A stretch of DNA of 64,000 bases from a virus (IMGVR_UViG_3300033074_001413:1-64000), one strand, 5' to 3'. Positions 4,486 through 26,891 are shown, counted from the stretch's first letter. A program made the numbers and translations. The notes: generated by a model from the letters alone, not told the origin.

Positions 4486-5679
4486 GTGCGTGAATTGGCT
4501 ACAAACGTTATCCGGACCCTCCGGGAACACGGCTTCCAGGCGTGGCTGGTCGGTGGGTGTGTACGGGATATCCATCTCAACGTCGAGCCGAAAGACTACG
4601 ACGTGGCCACCGACGCCACCCCTGCTCAAATCAACGCTATCTTCCCCGACTCTGACTTAGTCGGCGCTCACTTCGGTGTGGTCATTGTTCGCGGTGAAAC
4701 TGGCTACATCGAAGTCGCCACATTCCGCAAAGACCATGGCTACAGCGATGGCCGTCGCCCCGATGAAGTGTCATTCGTGACTAACCCCCAGGATGATGCT
4801 GCTCGTCGCGATTTCACCATCGGTGCCATGTTCATGGACCCTGAGACCAACGAGACTCTAGATTTCTTCGGCGGGCTAAACGACTTGCATAACGGAGTCA
4901 TTCGCACGGTTGGCGACCCCAACGTCCGATTCGCCGAGGACTACATCAGAATGCTTCGAGCCATCAGGTTCGCCGTTCGGTTCAAGTTCTCCATCGATCC
5001 GATGACCATGGTGGCGATCAGCAGCAACGCACACAAAATCACCAACATGGCGGCGGAGAGAATCCACGGGGAGTTGGTTCCTATTCTCTCGCATCGGAAT
5101 GCTGATTACGGCGTGGCCCTCCTTATACAGAGCGGCCTTCTACAACACATTCTTCCGGAGGCTGATCAGCCAGCCACCCATTACAGGTTTCAACAGGTTG
5201 GTGAATTCTCGTTCCCACTGTCGATGGCCATCCTGCTGACCCACTGCGATCAGCGCATCATCGAGTCGGTGATGAGGCGGATAGTCTGTACCACCAAAGA
5301 GACCGAAGAGACAGTCTGGCTGGTTGCCAACCGGAACAGCTTAATGACGGCTTGCACTATGCCAGTCCACGAGTTGAAGAGACTCTTGCGACATCAGTAC
5401 GCAAGGCACCTCACCGCGTTCTACCGGACGGTGAAAGTGATCGAACCGTTGACCGCCATCTGCAATGGGTTGAGCTACATCGCCCGCCAGGAATGGACGC
5501 ATGAGGATCTGTGGCCGACTCCTCTCATCAACGGTGAAACGCTCAAGGGCCTAGGAATGACCCCAGGCCCTCAGTTCAAAGTGGTTCTAGAAGCTGTTGA
5601 GAACGCTCAACTCGACGGTGAGATAACGACCGTGGACGAGGCTCTTGACCTCGTTGCCTCGTTACACATCAACGTCTAG
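4486..5679 (+). CDS. cca: tRNA nucleotidyltransferase (class II CCA-adding enzyme)
   Basis: LVGGCVRD, KDYDVAT, EVATFR, RRDFTI and EDYIRMLRAIRF motifs; lacks the poly(A) polymerase G[RK][RK]F motif (has LVGAHF). Confidence 0.9.
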   Translation: MRELATNVIRTLREHGFQAWLVGGCVRDIHLNVEPKDYDVATDATPAQINAIFPDSDLVGAHFGVVIVRGETGYIEVATFRKDHGYSDGRRPDEVSFVTNPQDDAARRDFTIGAMFMDPETNETLDFFGGLNDLHNGVIRTVGDPNVRFAEDYIRMLRAIRFAVRFKFSIDPMTMVAISSNAHKITNMAAERIHGELVPILSHRNADYGVALLIQSGLLQHILPEADQPATHYRFQQVGEFSFPLSMAILLTHCDQRIIESVMRRIVCTTKETEETVWLVANRNSLMTACTMPVHELKRLLRHQYARHLTAFYRTVKVIEPLTAICNGLSYIARQEWTHEDLWPTPLINGETLKGLGMTPGPQFKVVLEAVENAQLDGEITTVDEALDLVASLHINV

Positions 5680-7141: not shown

Positions 7142-7669
7142 ATGCTCCCGTTCAAGAAATGGCTCGCAGAAGCCGACTATATGGATGACGATAGCGGTCA
7201 TTGGGCCAGCGACTCCGGTGAGGCAAGTGGTGTTCTGACCATCTCCAGGAAATCCGGCAGGATATGTCTAGGGTGGCGTAATGTGATGACCCACACTGGC
7301 GACTGTTGGGGAGTATTTGGAGGGGCTGTACAGGATGGCAAGTCACCAGCGGAAAGTGCCAAATCAGAATTACGTGAAGAGACCGGATATAGCGGTAAGG
7401 TTAAGATGTTCCCGGCTTATGTGTTCAAAGACGGAGCATTCAAGTATTTCAACTTTGTTGGGTTAGTAGATTATGACTTCCAATATAGGCCGTCCAAGGA
7501 TCATAGTTGGGAGATAGATAAAATTAGGTGGTTCACATATCCAGAAGTTCTTAAGGAAATGCGTGAGAAGCCCAACACCTTCCACCCAGGAGTGATTACG
7601 TTGTTTGAGGAGTCGAAGGAATTGATTGAAAAGACTCTTCAGGATCTGGCAGACAGCACCCGCCCTTGA
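7142..7669 (+). CDS. Nudix hydrolase with an N-terminal capsid-targeting-like tag
   Basis: Nudix box GGAVQDGKSPAESAKSELREETG; N-terminus MLPFKKWLAEA; CTATATA-N5-ATG. Confidence 0.85.
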   Translation: MLPFKKWLAEADYMDDDSGHWASDSGEASGVLTISRKSGRICLGWRNVMTHTGDCWGVFGGAVQDGKSPAESAKSELREETGYSGKVKMFPAYVFKDGAFKYFNFVGLVDYDFQYRPSKDHSWEIDKIRWFTYPEVLKEMREKPNTFHPGVITLFEESKELIEKTLQDLADSTRP

Positions 7670-8821: not shown

Positions 8822-9115
8822 TTATGATGCTTTCTTTAGTTTCGGGCGCTGTGGTGACGCCGCCTCCACAAATAAACCAAGTACTGGTCCAGGACGAAGC
8901 CCATTGCGGCGGTGATAAGCCGCAGATCTATACAAGAACTCCACCGATCCACACGTTCCGTTGGTGTTGTCCTTTAGATCCATGGGGTATACGCTCATCG
9001 TTTCTCCGTTCAAGTGGTTGATGGCGTTTCGGATGATCATGTTTGCGTATCTGTCGACGCCAACACGGTCAGCTAACGACATTCGCGCTCCCTGAAGGAT
9101 TTCAATTGCGGTCAT
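8822..9115 (-). CDS. Hypothetical protein
   Basis: Abuts the downstream gene in the same operon. Confidence 0.6.
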   Translation of the reverse strand: MTAIEILQGARMSLADRVGVDRYANMIIRNAINHLNGETMSVYPMDLKDNTNGTCGSVEFLYRSAAYHRRNGLRPGPVLGLFVEAASPQRPKLKKAS

Positions 9116-9246
9116 TCATTTGGTTTTCCAGTCTCTCCGATTCTCTCCATTCGTAAACCATTTTACCACAGAAGAGGGGAAATGGTCAACCTACCCTACG
9201 CCTCATCTGTTGACTATCTCGAATGCTAATGTTATTCTTGAAAAGA

Positions 9247-10896
9247 ATGGCGCTACAGTTCTATACCAACATAGCTGCAGGATCTGATTGCCTTCTTCTC
9301 CGGGAGGTGGTTGACGGGCGGCGAATCAAGAGGAAGGTTCCGTACCAACCGACCTTATTCATTCCATCCAATAAGAAGACCAAATGGCGCGGCACCGATG
9401 AGACTGTAGTTGAGCCAATCAAGTTTGAGTCTGTGGCTGCGGCACGTGAGTATGTTAGGCAGCTCGAAGATGTGTCCGGAGCCAAGATATACGGCAACAC
9501 GGACTACAGATATGCATACCTCAATGAGGAATACCCAACGGAGCCAGTTGAATTCAATAGCAGCCAGATCCTGGTATTCAATATAGATATTGAGGTTGAT
9601 ACCACAGACGGGTTCTGTGAAGCACAGGAAGCAGTTAATCAGATCACGGCCATCACTATTAGGAACAGTCTAGATCGCCGATTCTATGTATGGGGTATGG
9701 GCGAGTTTCGCACTGACCGTAAGGACATCTCATACTTCCAGTGTAAGAACGAAGAGGACATGTTATATCGGTTCCTCGACTACTGGGAGTCTAATACGCC
9801 GGATCTGGTAATTGGGTGGAACATTGAGAACTTCGATATTCCATATCTGGTCAACCGCATCACGCGAGTGCGCGGGAAAGAAGAGGCACGTAGACTTTCC
9901 CCATGGAAGATCGTCCGTGAAAAGACACGCCATAAGTTCGGCAAAGACGTGTTTGTATATGACATTGGCGGGATGGCTATTCTCGACTATATGGTCATCT
10001 ACCGCAAGAACGTGTTGGAGCCAAGAGAGTCGTTCAGTCTGAATGCTATTGCTAATGTGGAGTTAGGCGAGAGCAAGATCAGCTACGATGAAGTGGCTAA
10101 CCTCAATCAGCTGCATGCCCAAAACCACCAGAAATTCATAGAATATAACATCCACGACGTCGAACTGGTGGAGCGACTGGACCGGAAACTCAAGCTAGTC
10201 GAACTGCAGCTGGTGGTGGCATATGCTACCAAGATCAACTATGACGATGTGTTCTCGCAGGTCAAGACCTGGGACACGCTAATCTGCAACCACCTGTTCC
10301 GTAGTAATATCGTCATCCCCATGAAAGAGCATGGAGACAGCAAGCATGAGCAGTATGCTGGTGCATACGTCAAAGAACCAATCGTCGGCCTACACTCATG
10401 GGTCACCAGCTTTGACGTTACCAGCCTCTATCCCAATATCATGCGTACTCTCAACATGGGGATTGAGACCAAAATGACCGCCGATAAATTACCATCGGAT
10501 CTACGTGCGTTCTTGGATACGCTTAGACCAAGAGAGGATCGCACCTCATTGGTCAAGAGAATGCTCAACGGCGATGTAAACATGTCTCCGATATACGACG
10601 CTAATCTGGCGCTGAGCGCTAATGGAGTAACCTACAAGCGCGAACCCCAAAGCTTCTACAGTCAGATGATCGATAATTTATTCAACCAGAGGGTGCTGTT
10701 CAAAAAGAAGGCGCAAAAAGGGAAAAAGGAAGTAGAGGCAATTCATACGGAGATGAAGAACAGACCGGACCCACATGGTTGTCATGGTAGTCTATATGAC
10801 CATGTTCAGTTCATTAAATCACCAGAGTTCGAGAAGGAAAAACGGTTGACATCTGAAGCAGCTGAAGATCAAAGAACTCCTCCTAAGGCAAGATAA
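9247..10896 (+). CDS. 43A: Family B DNA polymerase, N-terminal half (gp43A-like: exonuclease, motif A, first finger helix)
   Basis: DIEVD, GWNIENFDIPYL and YNIHDV exonuclease motifs; YAGAYVKEP and SFDVTSLYP motif A; stops in the fingers region. Confidence 0.95.
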   Translation: MALQFYTNIAAGSDCLLLREVVDGRRIKRKVPYQPTLFIPSNKKTKWRGTDETVVEPIKFESVAAAREYVRQLEDVSGAKIYGNTDYRYAYLNEEYPTEPVEFNSSQILVFNIDIEVDTTDGFCEAQEAVNQITAITIRNSLDRRFYVWGMGEFRTDRKDISYFQCKNEEDMLYRFLDYWESNTPDLVIGWNIENFDIPYLVNRITRVRGKEEARRLSPWKIVREKTRHKFGKDVFVYDIGGMAILDYMVIYRKNVLEPRESFSLNAIANVELGESKISYDEVANLNQLHAQNHQKFIEYNIHDVELVERLDRKLKLVELQLVVAYATKINYDDVFSQVKTWDTLICNHLFRSNIVIPMKEHGDSKHEQYAGAYVKEPIVGLHSWVTSFDVTSLYPNIMRTLNMGIETKMTADKLPSDLRAFLDTLRPREDRTSLVKRMLNGDVNMSPIYDANLALSANGVTYKREPQSFYSQMIDNLFNQRVLFKKKAQKGKKEVEAIHTEMKNRPDPHGCHGSLYDHVQFIKSPEFEKEKRLTSEAAEDQRTPPKAR

Positions 10897-11774
10897 TGGC
10901 GTGCATTGAGAAGATTTATTCAGTATCAGCATTGGTCGGATCGTCCATATGTAATGGGCGTTGTAACTTTTGCGCCGCCACTGGATTGCGTGATCAAGCG
11001 CCATCACGTGGTGAAAACAATGAACTATACTGGCGTAATTTCGCCGCCGCAATTCGACTGTCCGCTCGATACGGTGGATGGTCTCTTTCGCTAACCAGTA
11101 GCGGTGAGCCGACATGTGATCCAGAGGCTGTCACTAAGGCCATGTCAGTGTATCGGCGGTGTGCTAATGATGGGGCATACTTCCCAAATGTTAATCTCTT
11201 TACAAATGGTATTCTTCTAGGCGACGGCGATTTCTGTCACGAGTGGCTTCCGAAGTGGAAGGAACTCGGAATGACCAATATTGCGGTCTCCATTCATTCG
11301 GTTGATCCGGTCAAGCAAGCTGCTGTATATGGTGTCCCACATTATCCGCAGTTCAAGAAAATCTTCACCAACATCCAGAAACACGGTATTGGTGCCAGAG
11401 CCACTATTATTCTCCGAAAGGGAGAAGTCGACTCTGTACCAATGTACAAAGCGGCCATCAATCAGATTGTAGAAGATGGGTGTCGGAATATTACTGCTTG
11501 GCCTGTTGGAAAGCCAGACGGTAGCAGGAATGAGTTCACACCATCGCGGCTACAACTCTGGAAGATGAGATGGTGGCTAAAACAGAACGCCAAATTGTGT
11601 CACGGTCATGTCTGGGGTGGCGGGGTTTATGACTATAACGGGGTAATGCTTAGATTTACTGACTATGTGACCAAGCACGACCCAAACAAGGACTTCGTCA
11701 GACAGTTAGTGGTATTCCAGGATGGAACTGTGGCCTACTCGTGGATTAGAGAAGGCTCTCTATGCATGATCTGA
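10896..11774 (+). CDS. Radical SAM protein
   Basis: CNGRCNFC (CxxxCxxC), SSGEPT, LFTNG; coupled to gp43A through TAATG. Confidence 0.9.
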   Translation: MACIEKIYSVSALVGSSICNGRCNFCAATGLRDQAPSRGENNELYWRNFAAAIRLSARYGGWSLSLTSSGEPTCDPEAVTKAMSVYRRCANDGAYFPNVNLFTNGILLGDGDFCHEWLPKWKELGMTNIAVSIHSVDPVKQAAVYGVPHYPQFKKIFTNIQKHGIGARATIILRKGEVDSVPMYKAAINQIVEDGCRNITAWPVGKPDGSRNEFTPSRLQLWKMRWWLKQNAKLCHGHVWGGGVYDYNGVMLRFTDYVTKHDPNKDFVRQLVVFQDGTVAYSWIREGSLCMI

Positions 11775-12538
11775 AAAGTTTATCGTTGTTCGTTGGTACT
11801 GGTAGGTGTAACGCCAATTGCGCCCATTGCGCTGGCCGTCCACTACGACATACAGCGCCGGAACATGACGGCGACGACAAGCTAGAACACATCCGTAAAG
11901 TACTGATAGAATGCTATGAACGCGGCGCTAGGAATCTATCCATTAGTTGTAGCGGAGAGCCAACCCTCTCGCCAGTATCAGTCACGTCGGTGCTTCAACT
12001 AACATATTGGATGTCTAAGAACGGACAGGTGTATAAGCCGATAAACCTCTATACCAACGGAATAAAGATCGGCGAAAATGCCGCGTTCTGCCAGCGTTAT
12101 CTTGGTGTGTGGAAGTTACTCGGACTGACCCATTTCTACATGACAGTACATAGCTGTGATGAAAAGACTAACGCCAAAGTGTATGGGGTTAAGAAATACC
12201 CACCGCTCAAAACGGTGATTGGCCGGATGAAGGAATATGGGTTTAAGATTAGAGCGAACGTGGTGTTGAATAGAGAGTACTTTGACCACAATATCTTTAT
12301 CGATACAGCCACAAAGCTCCTAGAGTTGGGTGTTGACTCCATTTCCGCATGGCCAATTCGCGACAGTCATGATGAAATAGACAAAGGCCGTGCCCTACTC
12401 TCCTCCGATACGGAGAAGATTGTTGCTTGGGCATCCACACAGAAGAACGTGCATATTTATAGCGGCATGAACGACTATACGCACAAGATCACGCTGTTCC
12501 ATGATGGGCAGCTTACGAATAAATGGTGTAATCACTGA
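11762..12538 (+). CDS. Radical SAM protein, paralog of the upstream gene
   Basis: CNANCAHC, CSGEPT, LYTNG, HS..A.VYGV..YP, AWP and FxDG motifs shared with 10896..11774. Confidence 0.9.
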   Translation: MHDLKSLSLFVGTGRCNANCAHCAGRPLRHTAPEHDGDDKLEHIRKVLIECYERGARNLSISCSGEPTLSPVSVTSVLQLTYWMSKNGQVYKPINLYTNGIKIGENAAFCQRYLGVWKLLGLTHFYMTVHSCDEKTNAKVYGVKKYPPLKTVIGRMKEYGFKIRANVVLNREYFDHNIFIDTATKLLELGVDSISAWPIRDSHDEIDKGRALLSSDTEKIVAWASTQKNVHIYSGMNDYTHKITLFHDGQLTNKWCNH

Positions 12539-13206
12539 TGATAGATTTCTATGTTGAAGACCGGGTCAACCACAACGAAGTTGGCACAGAATATGACAGA
12601 GTTGTCTTTGAAAAGATCAAAGAAACTCTAGGCTCTAGTGATCTCAAACTTCTTGCAGTTGAAAATTGCCAAAGAACCAACGATGACTGGGCAGGTACAG
12701 ATAAGATATTTGTCACCAGTGGTGGAAGATTTCGTGTCGATTTCAAAACTGTGTTTAACTACTCATTCCCAGTCAAGTTAATTCATAGTGCCGACATCAC
12801 ACCACATCCAGAATGGGCTAATATACAGTTATACTATTGGTTCTACAGGAAACCCATCTGTGATTTTATTGCAGTCATCCATAGAAGTAGTAAAAAGGTG
12901 ATTGGTGTTTATATCACAGAAGTAGCGTGGGCTATCACCCTCAAGTATTGTTTAGAGTTTATCAACAAATATAGTAAGGCGGTATATGCCAATATCAACA
13001 TTAGGAAAAACGGGAGTCAATTCCTGTCGTCAGCAGTATACGTTCCTATAAGAGATTGGCATCAGCTATACTTAAAATATGAAAATACCCCAACATCAGA
13101 AATAGTAGATGAACCGTTTGATGCCCTGAGCATATTTCAATACATAAACCAGAAATTCCCATCCTGGCTTAAATCGGCTATAGACAATTACAATAAAAAG
13201 GGGTGA
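12538..13206 (+). CDS. Putative PD-(D/E)XK nuclease (possibly a free-standing homing endonuclease)
   Basis: DWAGTDKIF...RVDFKT motif; looks more AT-rich than its neighbours. Confidence 0.5.
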   Translation: MIDFYVEDRVNHNEVGTEYDRVVFEKIKETLGSSDLKLLAVENCQRTNDDWAGTDKIFVTSGGRFRVDFKTVFNYSFPVKLIHSADITPHPEWANIQLYYWFYRKPICDFIAVIHRSSKKVIGVYITEVAWAITLKYCLEFINKYSKAVYANINIRKNGSQFLSSAVYVPIRDWHQLYLKYENTPTSEIVDEPFDALSIFQYINQKFPSWLKSAIDNYNKKG

Positions 13207-14309
13207 TAATGGAGTTAGCAGAATTAAGTAATGACGAACTCATTGCTCTCGAGGAAAAACTGGATCTAGAGATCGCCTCCGCCGACCTCCGCCAAAAGGC
13301 CGTTAAGGTCTCCATGAACAGTCTCTATGGTGTTGTCGGTAACGGCTACTTCCGGTTCTTCGATGTGGACAACGCCGAGGCGGTGACCATCACCGGACAG
13401 CTTATCATTCAATATATCTCAAGAGAGTTGGACAAATATCTCAATGAACTATTTGGTACAACCAACTACGAGTATGTGATCTACTGCGACACTGATTCCG
13501 TATACGTCCGACTTGAAGAGTTCGTAAACAAATACTTCGCCGGGAAGCCACCGGAGTTCATCACCAAGAAGGTCGATAAGCTCTGTAAGGACAAGATTGA
13601 AAAGGCTATTGAGAGAATCTGTGAGGAGATAGTCTCCAAGGTCCTAAATGGTGTCCAGGGTCATCTCAGCATGAAACGTGAGGCCATCGGCGACAAGGGC
13701 ATCTGGACGGCCAAAAAGAGATACTTGGTCAATGTGCGCGACATGGAAGGGGTTGTGTACGCGGAGCCTAAAATCAAGTATATTGGCGTAGCCCTCGCCA
13801 CAGCGACGACACCCAAGTTCTGCCGCGATAGGATGCTTGAAGCTATTAAGATCCTGATGAAAGGCGATCAGGATAAGCTGATTGAGTATATTGAAGAACA
13901 GCGGCTTGAATTTAATAAGCTCGCCCCAGAAGACATTGCCTCGCCACGGACCTGCAACGGTATTGAGAAATACTCGGATGCCTCAACAGTGTTCAAGCCA
14001 CGGTGTCCATTCCACACCAAAGGTGCGATCATATACAACTATCTGGTCCGCAAGATGGGTCTTGAAAGTAAACTACAGTATATCAGAGAAGGAGAGAAGA
14101 TTAAGTATCTCTATCTGATAGAACCCAACCCAACGCCGGATAGGGCCATTGCATTCCTCAATACGCTCCCCAAAGAATTTGGGCTGCACCAATATATCGA
14201 CTATGACACTATGTGGAGTAAGGGATTTATCGAACCACTCAATCTTATTCTCGAGCCAATCGGGTGGAGATCGGAGAAGGTAGCTTCCCTGGACTGGATG
14301 TTTGAATGA
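13203..14309 (+). CDS. 43B: Family B DNA polymerase, C-terminal half (gp43B-like)
   Basis: QKAVKVSMNSLYG motif B, YCDTDS motif C, WTAKKRY, and C-terminal clamp-binding-like SLDWMF. Confidence 0.95.
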   Translation: MIMELAELSNDELIALEEKLDLEIASADLRQKAVKVSMNSLYGVVGNGYFRFFDVDNAEAVTITGQLIIQYISRELDKYLNELFGTTNYEYVIYCDTDSVYVRLEEFVNKYFAGKPPEFITKKVDKLCKDKIEKAIERICEEIVSKVLNGVQGHLSMKREAIGDKGIWTAKKRYLVNVRDMEGVVYAEPKIKYIGVALATATTPKFCRDRMLEAIKILMKGDQDKLIEYIEEQRLEFNKLAPEDIASPRTCNGIEKYSDASTVFKPRCPFHTKGAIIYNYLVRKMGLESKLQYIREGEKIKYLYLIEPNPTPDRAIAFLNTLPKEFGLHQYIDYDTMWSKGFIEPLNLILEPIGWRSEKVASLDWMFE

Positions 14310-15088
14310 TTATTCGCAAAACACCAAAAGAAATTGAAATAATGCGTTTCGGTGGACAAGCACTTGGAAACGTACTGCAGGAGCTGGCTAACAAGATTAA
14401 GCCGGGAATGTCTACTCTTGACCTTGATCTTATCGCTCAGAAGCTCATCAAGGATCATGGTGCTATAGCGGCGTTCATAGATTATACGCCGACGAAAGGA
14501 AAAGACTTTAGCGACCCATATAGGCACGCGACCTGTATATCTATTAATGACGAGCTTATTCATGGTATTCCGTCCAAAGACAGAAGATTCAAGAATGGAG
14601 ATGTTGTCAAGATTGACTGTGGCCTTCGTAAGGGTGGTTTCTATTCCGATGCTGCCGTCACGGTCACTGTAGGGGAAGTTTCTGAACAGGCACTCAAACT
14701 TATTAGTGTTACCAAGGAGGCTTTAAGTCTCGGTATTCAACAGGCGAAACCTGGGAATAGAATTAGTGACATTTCTAAGGCCATTCAGGACTGTGTTGAG
14801 GCGGCTGGATTCAGTTCCGTTCGGGATTTCTGTGGCCACGGTATTGGTAATGGTTTGCATGAAGATCCACCAGTGCCTAACTATGTTGATCCCAAGCGTG
14901 AAAATCCTCGCCTCAAAGAGGGGATGGTTTTGGCTATTGAACCAATGGTCATTGCTAGTAGCGTGAATATCCTTCGTAAGAAAAGTGATGGCTGGACCAT
15001 TGCATCGAGTGATAAATCTCTCACTGCCCATTTCGAACATACCGTAGCTATTACGGAATATGGTCCGTGGGTTCTAACCAGTCCGTAG
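14306..15088 (+). CDS. map: Type I methionine aminopeptidase
   Basis: CISINDELIHGIP, GFYSDAA, GHGIG..LHEDP, LAIEPM, AHFEHT. Confidence 0.95.
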   Translation: MIIRKTPKEIEIMRFGGQALGNVLQELANKIKPGMSTLDLDLIAQKLIKDHGAIAAFIDYTPTKGKDFSDPYRHATCISINDELIHGIPSKDRRFKNGDVVKIDCGLRKGGFYSDAAVTVTVGEVSEQALKLISVTKEALSLGIQQAKPGNRISDISKAIQDCVEAAGFSSVRDFCGHGIGNGLHEDPPVPNYVDPKRENPRLKEGMVLAIEPMVIASSVNILRKKSDGWTIASSDKSLTAHFEHTVAITEYGPWVLTSP

Positions 15089-15153
15089 TTTATTTGTTGC
15101 TCGGACGCCAATAAAATGTTATAATAATAGGGATACACCCAATAGGAGAACAT

Positions 15154-15321
15154 ATGATTGACTATCGCAGATTAGAAAAAGTCCGTAAGTACGCAGCCAA
15201 GATGGGTTTCCAAGTAACCGAAACCAGAATCTTCGAAACGCCAGAGTCCGTCGAAGCTATGCTGACGCTAGCCCCTGGTGAAGTCACTGCCGCCGATACC
15301 GACGCAGAAGAGGCTGAATAA
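15154..15321 (+). CDS. Small acidic hypothetical protein (55 aa, below the ORF-track cutoff)
   Basis: AGGAG RBS; MIDYRRLEK...AEEAE*; followed by a hairpin. Confidence 0.65.
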   Translation: MIDYRRLEKVRKYAAKMGFQVTETRIFETPESVEAMLTLAPGEVTAADTDAEEAE

Positions 15322-15366: not shown

Positions 15367-16398
15367 ATGAATAGATTACTACATGGGGACTGCTTAGCTG
15401 TCCTGAAGACCATCCCAGACAACTCTATCGACTCTGTTGTGACAGATCCTCCGTATGGGTTGGACAATGTAGGCGATAAATGGCACGATGTAGTGCCGAT
15501 GGTTCCGGTGTGGCAAGAATGCTTGCGGGTGCTCAAACCAGGAGGAATTGCTCTGGTATTCAGTGCTGCGCGTACACAGCATCACATGGCCATGAACCTG
15601 GAAAACGCCGGATTCGAAATCAGAGATCAACTTGTCTGGTCCTACCTAAGTGGATACCCAAAATCGCTCGATGTTTCGGCGGCGTTGGATAAGCTAGAAG
15701 GATGTGAGAGACCTGTCATTGGTGAAAAGGAATCCATCGACCCATTCAACAAGTCCAAGAAGAAGATCACCAAGAAGTATAGTAGTGATCCTATTAGCGA
15801 ACTTGCCAAGAAGTATGATGGATGGGGAACAGGACTCAGACCAGCCAATGAGCCAATCACGGTAGCACGTAAACCAATCCCAGATAAATACAACGTTGCT
15901 GAGTGCATCAAGGAGTTTGGAACTGGTGCCATCAACCTCGTGGACTCTCGGATTGCACGTGCGAAGGATAGCAGATGGCCATCAAACATTATGATGGATG
16001 GTGGAGTAGCCGACTGGATTGAGATAATGCATTCAGAGTCATCGGAGACATATCTGGTTGTCAACCCGGACCGCATTGATCACAATCCAAAGCTGATTGT
16101 TGTGCCGAAACCAGCCGGGAAGGAACGGGCGCTTTCCGATCACCCAACCAGAAAACCAGTGAAGTTGATGGAATATCTGGTTAGACTAGTAACTCCTCCT
16201 GGAGGAATGGTACTTGATCCGTTTGCTGGCTCTGGATCGACTGGTGTTGCAGCAGTGCGACAAGGTATGAGTGTTACTCTAATTGAACTTAGCGATGAAT
16301 TCTACAAGACCATTGTAGATCGATTCGAGAATATTCAACGAGAGATGGAAGACATCCCACAGGAAGAACAATCCGCACTTGACGCTTTATTCACATGA
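15367..16398 (+). CDS. DNA N4-C/N6-A methyltransferase (beta class)
   Basis: TDPPYG near the N-terminus; HPTRKP and LDPFAGSGST near the C-terminus. Confidence 0.92.
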   Translation: MNRLLHGDCLAVLKTIPDNSIDSVVTDPPYGLDNVGDKWHDVVPMVPVWQECLRVLKPGGIALVFSAARTQHHMAMNLENAGFEIRDQLVWSYLSGYPKSLDVSAALDKLEGCERPVIGEKESIDPFNKSKKKITKKYSSDPISELAKKYDGWGTGLRPANEPITVARKPIPDKYNVAECIKEFGTGAINLVDSRIARAKDSRWPSNIMMDGGVADWIEIMHSESSETYLVVNPDRIDHNPKLIVVPKPAGKERALSDHPTRKPVKLMEYLVRLVTPPGGMVLDPFAGSGSTGVAAVRQGMSVTLIELSDEFYKTIVDRFENIQREMEDIPQEEQSALDALFT

Positions 16399-24707: not shown

Positions 24708-25179
24708 CAGAACTTACTTCTTCCGGGGTAGCGAACCGCAAGATTTCGCCGCGATCCCACCGGGCTTCTTCACCATCGTACGGCGTGGTGCCAGTGACTG
24801 CAGTTCCACGCAGAGCGGGGTTACACCCAAACCCGCCTTCAGCACGGAGTAACCGATATCTGAGATCGCGGTATTTCTTTCCCACACAGTCAGCACGAAT
24901 GACGACGTATCTGTTGGTGAGGTCCTTGCCGACTATGGACAGCTCAGGCGGAACGGTTTCGATCACACCTTTGGACTTGATCTCCCCCTTGCTGTACCGC
25001 TCCAGGAAGATTTTCTGCGCGTCGGGAATTGGGGTAAAGACCTTCCGGCCACGCTCCTCGCGGACGGTGGCCAGCCCCTGCCGAACATGGGTCTGCATGT
25101 GGGAGATATTCCCAAGGCCGCTCGTGGTGATCTCCACGGTGCAGATACGGCAACTGGTACGCGAGTAGACTCTACTCAT
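24676..25179 (-). CDS. Hypothetical protein with a C2H2-like N-terminus
   Basis: CRIC...HMQTH; AEGGFGCNP; GGAG RBS. Confidence 0.65.
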   Translation of the reverse strand: MSRVYSRTSCRICTVEITTSGLGNISHMQTHVRQGLATVREERGRKVFTPIPDAQKIFLERYSKGEIKSKGVIETVPPELSIVGKDLTNRYVVIRADCVGKKYRDLRYRLLRAEGGFGCNPALRGTAVTGTTPYDGEEARWDRGEILRFATPEEVSSVVGGDLGTTA

Positions 25180-26137
25180 GATTCTCCTTGTTTAGTTCAC
25201 GATGCCGATTGTTGTAATCCACACAAACATCCAGGCAGTTATGACTGCAGATGGGATCCTCGTGGGTGTTGTGGTTTTGATACCACTCTAGGCGCTGCTG
25301 GCGCACGGTCTCATCAACAACACCAATGGCTTGACCACCCTCTCGCAAGTAGATGATACACGGATAGTGCTTCTTACCGCAAACCGCCATGTCGTCAAGA
25401 ACAAGCGGGCACTTGTTATTGTCGGTGTCAGATAATCCACGCACCATTCTTCCTGAATGGAAGTTGTCGATTCTGTACTTGAGAATCGGGTGTCTGTCCA
25501 GGAGATGCTGGCTGATGTTAATAGAGCACAGCACCTTCCCGTCTTGTGCAGCCGGGATAACACGGATATCACGCACACCGAGGGTGTCAGCAAAAGCCAC
25601 GGTGTTGCTGATGCTGCGAATGTTGTTCGTTGTAGCCACGATGCCGACTGTCAGGTAGACGCGTTGAGACAGCAACTCAATGTTGGCAATCACCTTTTCC
25701 CAGGCACCAACAACACCACCGCTCATCTGGAACCCGTCCTCCGCACAACAAGCATCCAAGGAGATGGAGAAGTCGTTGACTCCAGCATCAATAAGCTCAA
25801 GGTATTTCCGTATCGGTAGTGACCCGTTTGAGGAAACGGCGATCCTCTTGATTCCGAGATCTTTCGATAGCTGCACCAACTCCGGAAGGCGTCGGTAGAG
25901 CAACGGTTCCCCACCACTGAACCTAACAGCGAATAAACGATGTGAAGCCCAGATTCGCAAAATGCGAGCAGCCTCTTCGTATTCGATATCATCGCTGCCA
26001 GCGCTGCGGCAGTACGGACACCGGAAGTTGCAGCGGTTGGTCAAGAGCATCTCACAACGAGAAAGAGGAGTGACCGCGCTGGCTCTCGCCGCACGGTCAT
26101 CGGATAGGGTATAGAATCCAATCTGCTCCAACTTCAC
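25172..26137 (-). CDS. Radical SAM protein, MoaA-like with a SPASM/twitch-type Cys-rich tail
   Basis: CNFRCPYC, RFSGGEPLL, SSNGS, SISLD; C-terminal C...YPC...CSHNCLDVC; start reassigned to GTG 26137. Confidence 0.88.
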   Translation of the reverse strand: MKLEQIGFYTLSDDRAARASAVTPLSRCEMLLTNRCNFRCPYCRSAGSDDIEYEEAARILRIWASHRLFAVRFSGGEPLLYRRLPELVQLSKDLGIKRIAVSSNGSLPIRKYLELIDAGVNDFSISLDACCAEDGFQMSGGVVGAWEKVIANIELLSQRVYLTVGIVATTNNIRSISNTVAFADTLGVRDIRVIPAAQDGKVLCSINISQHLLDRHPILKYRIDNFHSGRMVRGLSDTDNNKCPLVLDDMAVCGKKHYPCIIYLREGGQAIGVVDETVRQQRLEWYQNHNTHEDPICSHNCLDVCVDYNNRHRELNKENHE

Positions 26138-26141
26138 GTCG

Positions 26142-26891
26142 TTACTTCTTTCTGTTGCTTTCAAACAACCGGGCAAGACTCCTATAGAACTCGTCGGCCT
26201 TCTCCTGTTCACGAAGCCATTCGTCGGCATCGGCCTTCGACATCTCCACACGCACCATCTCATCGTAACGGTCTTCATCATTGCCGTCCGGAGTGGAGAT
26301 GGTATAGGTGTCGGGACCGTCGAGACTAATGGTGCACCCAACTGTCATGGTCACCAGATTGAGGGGTTCACCGACAGCCGCCTGATATTCTTCGCCGACC
26401 AACTGTGTCACCGGGAACAGGTCGTAGCCCATCAGCTCCAGGGCAACCAATTTCTGTTTCGGACTGCGAATAGCCACCATCTCCGGTTCATCACGCCGAT
26501 GCTCGTCGTCATGGAAGTGGCCATGGATATTGACATCGAACGAGCCATCGTCAGCCACCGGAATGTGGGTGAACAGGATGCGCAGCCCATGATAATTGAC
26601 GCGGTACTCCTTGTGTACTTCGTTCCATCCGTGCGACAGATACCACGCGTCGGACTGGCCGTCGTGATTCCCACGCACGAGGATTTTGCGCCCCGGCATA
26701 TGCGCGATGAACATCTCGTGTGCCTGGGACTGCTTGGCGAAACACACATCTCCAAGGTGGATGACCGTGTCGTGTTCGGTGACCTTGGTCGTCCAGTTTT
26801 GAGTGATGGTGTGCTCAAATCCCTCAGGACGCTTTCCACGGCGAACGAGGTTGTAATGGTTGTAATGCGTATCAGCCGTGATATATAGCAT
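26142..26891 (-). CDS. Calcineurin-like metallophosphoesterase
   Basis: DTH, HLGD, GNHD, THIP, HGHFH. Confidence 0.9.
   Translation of the reverse strand: MLYITADTHYNHYNLVRRGKRPEGFEHTITQNWTTKVTEHDTVIHLGDVCFAKQSQAHEMFIAHMPGRKILVRGNHDGQSDAWYLSHGWNEVHKEYRVNYHGLRILFTHIPVADDGSFDVNIHGHFHDDEHRRDEPEMVAIRSPKQKLVALELMGYDLFPVTQLVGEEYQAAVGEPLNLVTMTVGCTISLDGPDTYTISTPDGNDEDRYDEMVRVEMSKADADEWLREQEKADEFYRSLARLFESNRKK

Follow-up and report, generated by a model that had tools for sequence, protein, structure and literature searches.

A T4-type DNA polymerase gene divided at the finger tip by a radical SAM gene pair and an ORFan in a phage replication operon

In Aeromonas phages 25 and 44RR, gene 43, which encodes the DNA polymerase, is split into two cistrons, 43A and 43B, by a break at the finger tip (Petrov et al. 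2010, reviewed in PMC2988022), and its two subunits reportedly co-purify and are active (PMC2988022). The phage 25 record places a homing endonuclease gene between 43A and a 43B that carries a group I intron. In Acinetobacter phage 133, which belongs to a different lineage from the virus studied here, 43A and 43B are separated by a ~2.9 kb insert of the same strand; it comprises eight small open reading frames (ORFs), mostly hypothetical and including the gene for an enzyme, the tk.4 phosphatase, and it has no gene for a radical S-adenosylmethionine (SAM) enzyme. Another essential, replication-related gene, nrdA of Aeromonas phage Aeh1, is split by a free-standing gene, mobE, a single recognisable HNH-type endonuclease gene with no metabolic cargo (PMC3045599, PMC2988022). 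Finally, an archaeal enzyme, Pfu polymerase, has been broken at the finger tip in the laboratory with nothing inserted, and is fully active when its halves are expressed through AUGA stop-start coupling (PMC3061061). Here we describe a split T4-type family B polymerase gene in a 64,000-nt stretch of viral DNA (IMGVR_UViG_3300033074_001413:1-64000; hereafter, the window), part of a 98.8 kb IMG/VR record that is ~55% complete. The gap between the two halves holds two paralogous radical SAM genes, rSAM1 and rSAM2, and an ORF of 222 amino acids (ORF222). An earlier note on this DNA had cited the split 43A/43B genes and mobE as precedents, both of which are present in the literature, and had called metabolic cargo within the split unusual. 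The phosphatase-containing insert of phage 133 shows that a split gene 43 with cargo is already known; the radical SAM identity of the cargo, and its bearing on an orphan radical SAM family, are the new part.

The two polymerase cistrons, polA (gp43A-like) and polB (gp43B-like), are separated by 2313 bases (Table 1). Searches of Pfam and PHROGs assigned to polA the PolB exonuclease domain along with the beginning of the polymerase domain, and to polB the remainder. On the full-length profile PHROG 262, polA covers positions 8–498 and polB positions 498–852, such that the halves meet at position 498. Each half also matches a family of half-polymerases, PHROG 2062 for polA (N-terminal halves, 502 positions; E 2.4e-141) and PHROG 1918 for polB (C-terminal halves, 382 positions; E 2.7e-116). 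The polA ATG agrees with the N terminus of the RB69 polymerase in the alignment, polA can be aligned to RB69 through motif A, and residues 526–549 of the T4 and RB69 enzymes correspond to polB residues 4–23, immediately ahead of motif B, which puts the beginning of polB near RB69 residues ~535–549. The break falls within the finger tip and separates the two finger helices, with gp43A ending after the first helix and gp43B beginning just before motif B, as the earlier note had proposed; the end point of polA is that of gp43A in phages 25 and 133. We read all catalytic motifs directly in the translations, and they are intact, again in agreement with that note: Exo I (DIE), Exo II (NFD), Exo III (YNIHD) and motif A (DVTSLYP) in polA, and motif B (KVSMNSLYG), motif C (DTDS) and KKRY in polB, such that the exonuclease and polymerase motifs of family B are complete when both products are taken together. 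In RB69, the residues that bind the incoming triphosphate are divided between one finger helix (R482 and K486) and the other (K560 and N564) (PMC3061061); by analogy, the deoxynucleoside triphosphate (dNTP) site would here be put together from both chains.

The last 47 residues of polA appear disordered and charged, and searches of the family libraries returned no homologue of this tail. In the split NrdA of phage Aeh1, the halves reassemble and tails created by the insertion may help; the polA tail might likewise serve in assembly. A MAFFT alignment hinted at a duplicated finger-tip segment in polA and polB, which we rejected because BLASTP detected no similarity between the polA tail and the start of polB; alignment with phages 25 and 133 indicates that the apparent duplication reflects a shorter finger tip in a fused relative, L010. 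The C-terminal subunit starts Met-Glu-Leu here as well as in phages 25 and 133 (L077 5610 −; L079 1253 −). The three starts fall in different columns of the alignment, and the surrounding DNA can be aligned only at the Shine-Dalgarno sequence and the ATG.

We compared the locus with polymerase genes from related phages. The nearest GenBank phage polymerases are cyanomyovirus enzymes with ~40% identity. The split is confirmed in the window, and the polymerase is fused, in a single frame, in every one of the 20 related loci, drawn from IMG/VR and JGI metagenomes, that span the site, indicating that the fused gene is the ancestral state. Moreover, polA is 40% identical to fused L010 and 29–30% identical to gp43A of phages 25 and 133 (29% for phage 25), and polB is 49% identical to fused L010 and 37% identical to the split enzymes of phages 25 and 133. 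These values argue against a shared origin with the split polymerases of the Aeromonas and Acinetobacter phages. Because both halves are closer to a fused enzyme than to the split ones, and because the nearest relatives are all fused, the simplest reading is that the window polymerase was probably split in a separate event at the same permissive site. No polymerase relative above 49% identity was found in the metagenome and IMG/VR collections searched, so the transition from fused to split is neither datable nor visible in sister genomes.

Independent assemblies cover much of the locus. A separately assembled 14.4 kb Logan contig (X1) spans positions 9000–14773, including both insert junctions, with zero differences. 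Contigs from a wastewater metagenome, a second study, are 96–98% identical over the rSAM1/rSAM2 junction and within polB; the matches of wastewater run X3, like those of run X2, leave out ORF222 and both junctions between insert and polymerase. All 25 listed differences, of which the radical SAM genes account for 9 and polB for 16, are synonymous and at third positions, indicating that purifying selection acts on both in this lineage.

Between 9.2 and 15.1 kb, six co-directional + strand ORFs follow one another: polA, rSAM1, rSAM2, ORF222, polB and a methionine aminopeptidase gene. The 2313 intervening bases are made up of the two radical SAM genes and ORF222, joined stop to start. The polA/rSAM1 junction is TAATG, with a 1-base overlap; rSAM1 and rSAM2 overlap by 13 bases; rSAM2/ORF222 is TGATG, again with a 1-base overlap; and polB and the aminopeptidase gene share an ATGA. 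The TAATG and ATGA junctions are comparable to the AUGA coupling of engineered Pfu. ORF222 and polB either overlap at a GTGA, if polB starts at GTG 13203, or are separated by a 2-base gap, if it starts at ATG 13209; the ATG is the likelier start because a properly spaced AAGGGG precedes it. The genes are co-directional and coupled over the entire run. The earlier note had stated that all five overlap, which holds for the three junctions from polA to ORF222 and, at polB, depends on the start codon. No + strand terminator was found inside the six-gene run. Genes around the polymerase encode UvsX, a gp41-type helicase, a NUDIX protein and a DNA methyltransferase.

Table 1. Features of the split polymerase locus and of the genes around it, in window coordinates.
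Feature	Position	Strand	Description
CCA-adding tRNA nucleotidyltransferase	4486–5679	+	flanks polymerase region
NUDIX hydrolase	7142–7669		
polA (gp43A-like)	9247–10896; ORF opens at 9223	+	N-terminal domain, 3'-5' exonuclease, motif A, first finger helix, 47-residue tail
polA tail	10753–10893	+	last 47 residues of polA
Left border motif AAGGCAAGATAATGG	10885–10899	+	Shine-Dalgarno, polA TAA stop, overlapping rSAM1 ATG
rSAM1	10896–11774	+	292 aa; radical SAM enzyme of an uncharacterised family, very strong conservation
rSAM2	11762–12538	+	258 aa; rSAM1 paralogue, usual downstream partner of rSAM1 in other genomes
ORF222	12538–13206	+	222 aa; low-GC ORFan, possible PD-(D/E)XK-like motif D55, D68-F-K70
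Right border motif AAGGGGTGATAATGG	13198–13212	+	Shine-Dalgarno, ORF222 TGA stop, polB ATG at 13209
polB (gp43B-like)	13209 (ATG) or 13203 (GTG)–14309	+	second finger helix with motif B, palm with motif C, thumb
Type I methionine aminopeptidase	14306–15088	+	TIGR00500, 296 bits (cut-off 171); last gene of coupled run
DNA methyltransferase	15367–16398	+	flanks polymerase region
Third radical SAM gene	25172–26341	−	389 aa; PF04055, 72.9 bits

The products of rSAM1 and rSAM2 are paralogues (32% identity, E 3.4e-34), as the earlier note had recognised. Both have an intact CX3CX2C motif, the cysteines of which are invariant among relatives, and both score above the cut-off of 29.5 bits for the radical SAM core PF04055 (49.1 and 39.4 bits). 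More than 600 relatives of rSAM1 share 63–73% identity and have a nearly constant length, and the conserved C-terminal part includes CHGHxWGGG; ~200 relatives of rSAM2 share 45–52% identity. A structure model of rSAM1 has a predicted local distance difference test (pLDDT) score of 83.5, and its best structural matches are MoaA, the GTP 3',8-cyclase (template modelling (TM) score 0.64), and the viperins, enzymes that act on nucleoside triphosphates and have CX3CX2C near the N terminus. This fold likeness is a lead only to how the enzyme may work. The pair scores 25.9 and 32.6 bits with the MoaA equivalog model (cut-off 284) and 17.7 and 23.5 bits with the viperin/pVip model (cut-off 180), and is thus a member of neither family; a further viperin search gave a score for rSAM2 only, 21.8 bits. 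The CHGHxWGGG part, the organisation as a two-paralogue operon, and the NrdR and AAA_28 contexts described below also set the pair apart from MoaA and viperin. Neither rSAM1 nor rSAM2 matched the NrdG model, and no NrdD was found in the 98.8 kb record, a weak absence given that the record is ~55% complete. Profile searches of the PDB gave a best E of 2e-5 for rSAM2 (biotin synthase) and nothing better than 0.005 for rSAM1. A match of the rSAM1 C terminus to the nuclease-like Pfam family EC042_2821 (17.7 bits, cut-off 24.9) was taken as noise. Our literature searches on this radical SAM family returned no paper that describes it.

We next consider where else the pair occurs. Gene contexts were read from 63 IMG/VR and GTDB loci that carry rSAM1, 7 viral and 56 cellular. 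The cellular hosts include Woesearchaeota, Nanoarchaeia, Pacearchaeota, Paceibacterota, Collierbacteria and Dojkabacteria, with the gene on chromosomal contigs of 0.5–0.77 Mb. Among the cellular loci, 32 of 56 have an rSAM2-type gene directly after rSAM1, as do 2 of the 7 viral ones. Hence, rSAM1-rSAM2 is a pre-existing operon, common to DPANN archaea, candidate phyla radiation (CPR) bacteria and other phages. In a quick tree, the window copy of rSAM1 groups with other viral and CPR copies, with no branch strongly supported. In five loci (L009, L070, L072, L075 and L076) rSAM1 was matched in two pieces, representing frameshifted or interrupted copies, or assembly errors.

The neighbours of rSAM1 point to nucleotide metabolism. 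The divergent neighbour of rSAM1 is nrdR in ten loci, of which nine come from CPR-type bacterial bins. The intergenic region between the two genes contains NrdR-box-like sites at conserved distances in six CPR loci (L021, L022, L023, L050, L061 and L066); where two sites are present, 42 bases separate them. These palindromes (core CWATATATWG, at least 9/10 matches) lie at −108 to −119 and −72 to −77 before rSAM1, and their density upstream of rSAM1 is 3.2 per kb, as compared to 0.23 per kb elsewhere in those loci (~14-fold). In DPANN genomes, the neighbours are AAA_28 kinase-like genes, a divergent gene of 279 amino acids, a gene of 170 amino acids and a metallophosphoesterase gene. We dropped the idea that the pair replaces ribonucleotide reductase (RNR), since an RNR of class I/II or class III is encoded in four of the five host genomes that we tested. 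No RNR gene was found in the 98.8 kb of the phage record, in its ~55% complete state.

We consider it reasonably probable that the window encodes an independently arisen, functional split polymerase, that its gap houses an auxiliary operon of nucleotide metabolism together with a foreign ORFan, and that all of these genes are expressed along with the replisome. Foreign DNA would have inserted at the break-tolerant finger tip, splitting the polymerase gene. The resulting two-subunit polymerase would work, with the dNTP-binding fingers rebuilt from one helix per subunit; natural and engineered finger-tip splits do yield active polymerases (PMC2988022, PMC3061061). One part of the insert would be the ready-made rSAM1-rSAM2 operon, with contexts that point to nucleotide or DNA-precursor metabolism, and the other a compositionally foreign ORFan, probably a separate acquisition and possibly a nuclease. 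The six genes would be read as one translationally coupled unit within the replication module, so the cargo would be made alongside the replisome, consistent with an auxiliary function in nucleotide metabolism. Several points weigh against this explanation. That polA and polB assemble, and that the phage is viable, is presumed, and the radical SAM pair has a putative reaction for which a nucleotide is the proposed substrate. The resemblance of the rSAM1 model to MoaA and viperins (TM 0.5–0.64, 13–18% identity) is mostly that of the generic radical SAM barrel. The candidate NrdR boxes are in an intergenic region common to nrdR, and may regulate nrdR only. The record is ~55% complete, so other nucleotide genes of the phage lie outside view. 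Lastly, the sample behind the Logan contig, albeit assembled separately, may be that of the window.

A possible but doubtful alternative is that ORF222, as in the nuclease-driven mobile cassette of the earlier note, is a free-standing homing-type endonuclease that became established in the polymerase gene by cutting its fused form at the finger tip, much like the seg-like gene of phage 25 or mobE in Aeh1 nrdA, the radical SAM pair having hitch-hiked or come later. ORF222 is a compositional outlier, with a GC content of 0.38 and a GC content at third codon positions (GC3) of 0.39; its neighbours have values of 0.47–0.48 and 0.48–0.59, respectively. Because its composition differs from that of the radical SAM genes, ORF222 probably arrived separately from them. 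It lies directly before polB, the position of the small free-standing homing endonuclease gene in phage 25, and its D55...D68-F-K70 pattern, together with weak leads from the ESM Atlas towards PD-(D/E)XK clusters (feature score 0.91–0.92, structure TM 0.43), suggests that it may be a nuclease. The PD-(D/E)XK identity proposed in the earlier note was nevertheless not confirmed, given that the evidence is a motif-level pattern and weak leads with no family match: Pfam, PHROGs, NCBIfam and PADLOC returned nothing, even at E 10. We also found no relatives of ORF222 among 5.8 billion proteins, 1.84 billion representatives, IMG/VR or GenBank phages, and hence none at polymorphic sites elsewhere, where a homing endonuclease would be expected to have them. 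A single-sequence AlphaFold2 model was unusable (pLDDT 42), and no ORF222-like gene was detected beside the radical SAM genes in the 63 other loci, by neighbour clustering or by tblastn. The window also differs from phage 25 in that its insert is 2.3 kb long with two radical SAM genes and no group I intron, and in that ORF222 is not recognisable as a seg or GIY-YIG gene.

The insert borders bear on the same alternative. The pattern AAGG-N3-GATAATGG is present at both borders and, with one mismatch allowed, nowhere else in the window, which would favour this alternative; however, we defined the pattern post hoc from these two sites, and it is no proof. The borders also fit duplication of an already bicistronic TAATG junction, similar to the short junction of phage 44RR, upon insertion of the cargo. 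A two-step history of this kind, in which the split precedes the insertion, was weighed by Edgell et al. for phage 25 (PMC2988022).

Functional coupling is a second, improbable alternative. Here, the radical SAM pair would make an unusual (deoxy)nucleotide or modify DNA, the split-finger polymerase would be adapted to use the product, and the placement of the genes would match their expression. In a specific and very improbable form of this idea, the pair would perform novel radical chemistry on a nucleoside triphosphate, for example to make a non-canonical DNA precursor, and the split-finger enzyme, with triphosphate-binding residues on two chains, would be tuned to accept it. The tight translational coupling of the genes is consistent with such a link, as are the predicted resemblance of rSAM1 to enzymes that use nucleoside triphosphates, the presence of genes for a DNA methyltransferase and a third radical SAM protein in the vicinity, and the observation that a finger-tip split combined with a point mutation widened the nucleotide tolerance of Pfu polymerase (PMC3061061). 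By contrast, no T4-type PolB is encoded within 6–8 kb of rSAM1 in any of the 7 viral and 56 cellular loci, some of which carry the pair and others rSAM1 alone. Five viral records searched in full lack a gp43-type polymerase altogether, including a complete 442 kb phage contig that carries rSAM1. In DPANN and CPR cells, rSAM1 is a chromosomal gene with housekeeping-type neighbours, and phage 133 has unrelated cargo in the same gap. The functional link between pair and polymerase suggested in the earlier note is thus not supported: the pair does occur away from polymerases, which the note had named among the observations that would refute the link. Because the pair is found in 63 loci without a nearby T4-type PolB, a polymerase-specific role is unlikely, and nucleotide-metabolism cargo is the better reading.

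We searched for signs that the insert is removed by splicing. Over positions 9000–15200, Rfam gave no match at E up to 1, and hence no group I or group II intron core. Split inteins and fractured genes (PMC2677866) would be expected to have Hint halves at the ends of the pieces; Pfam detected no Hint domain, and polB begins directly in the finger helix. Although the window is a metagenomic contig without a close relative, it is scarcely credible that the arrangement is an assembly chimera, or an intron or intein whose removal yields a single polymerase, given that the Logan contig crosses both junctions unchanged, that the polA stop is overlapped by the start of the next gene, that polB begins at an ATG with a Shine-Dalgarno sequence of its own, and that the three inserted ORFs are intact, with only synonymous radical SAM differences from the related strain.

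Other genes of the window are listed in Table 1. A methionine aminopeptidase is an odd gene for a phage replication operon, and its GC3 of 0.41 is below that of the polymerase. The third radical SAM gene bears no resemblance in length to the pair inside the polymerase gene, and its product is extended by ~95 amino acids at the N terminus; its best match is MoaA-like (79 bits, cut-off 284), and small unannotated ORFs surround it.

The split polymerase of the window is an apparently independent case showing that, in T4-like phages, foreign DNA has landed repeatedly at the tip of the PolB fingers, and that multi-gene enzyme cargo is able to reside there. An orphan, NrdR-linked radical SAM pair has now been seen inside a phage replication operon, which adds weight to the view that DNA precursors are what the family acts on. 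As a compact unit of five genes, the locus could also be expressed in order to identify the reaction.

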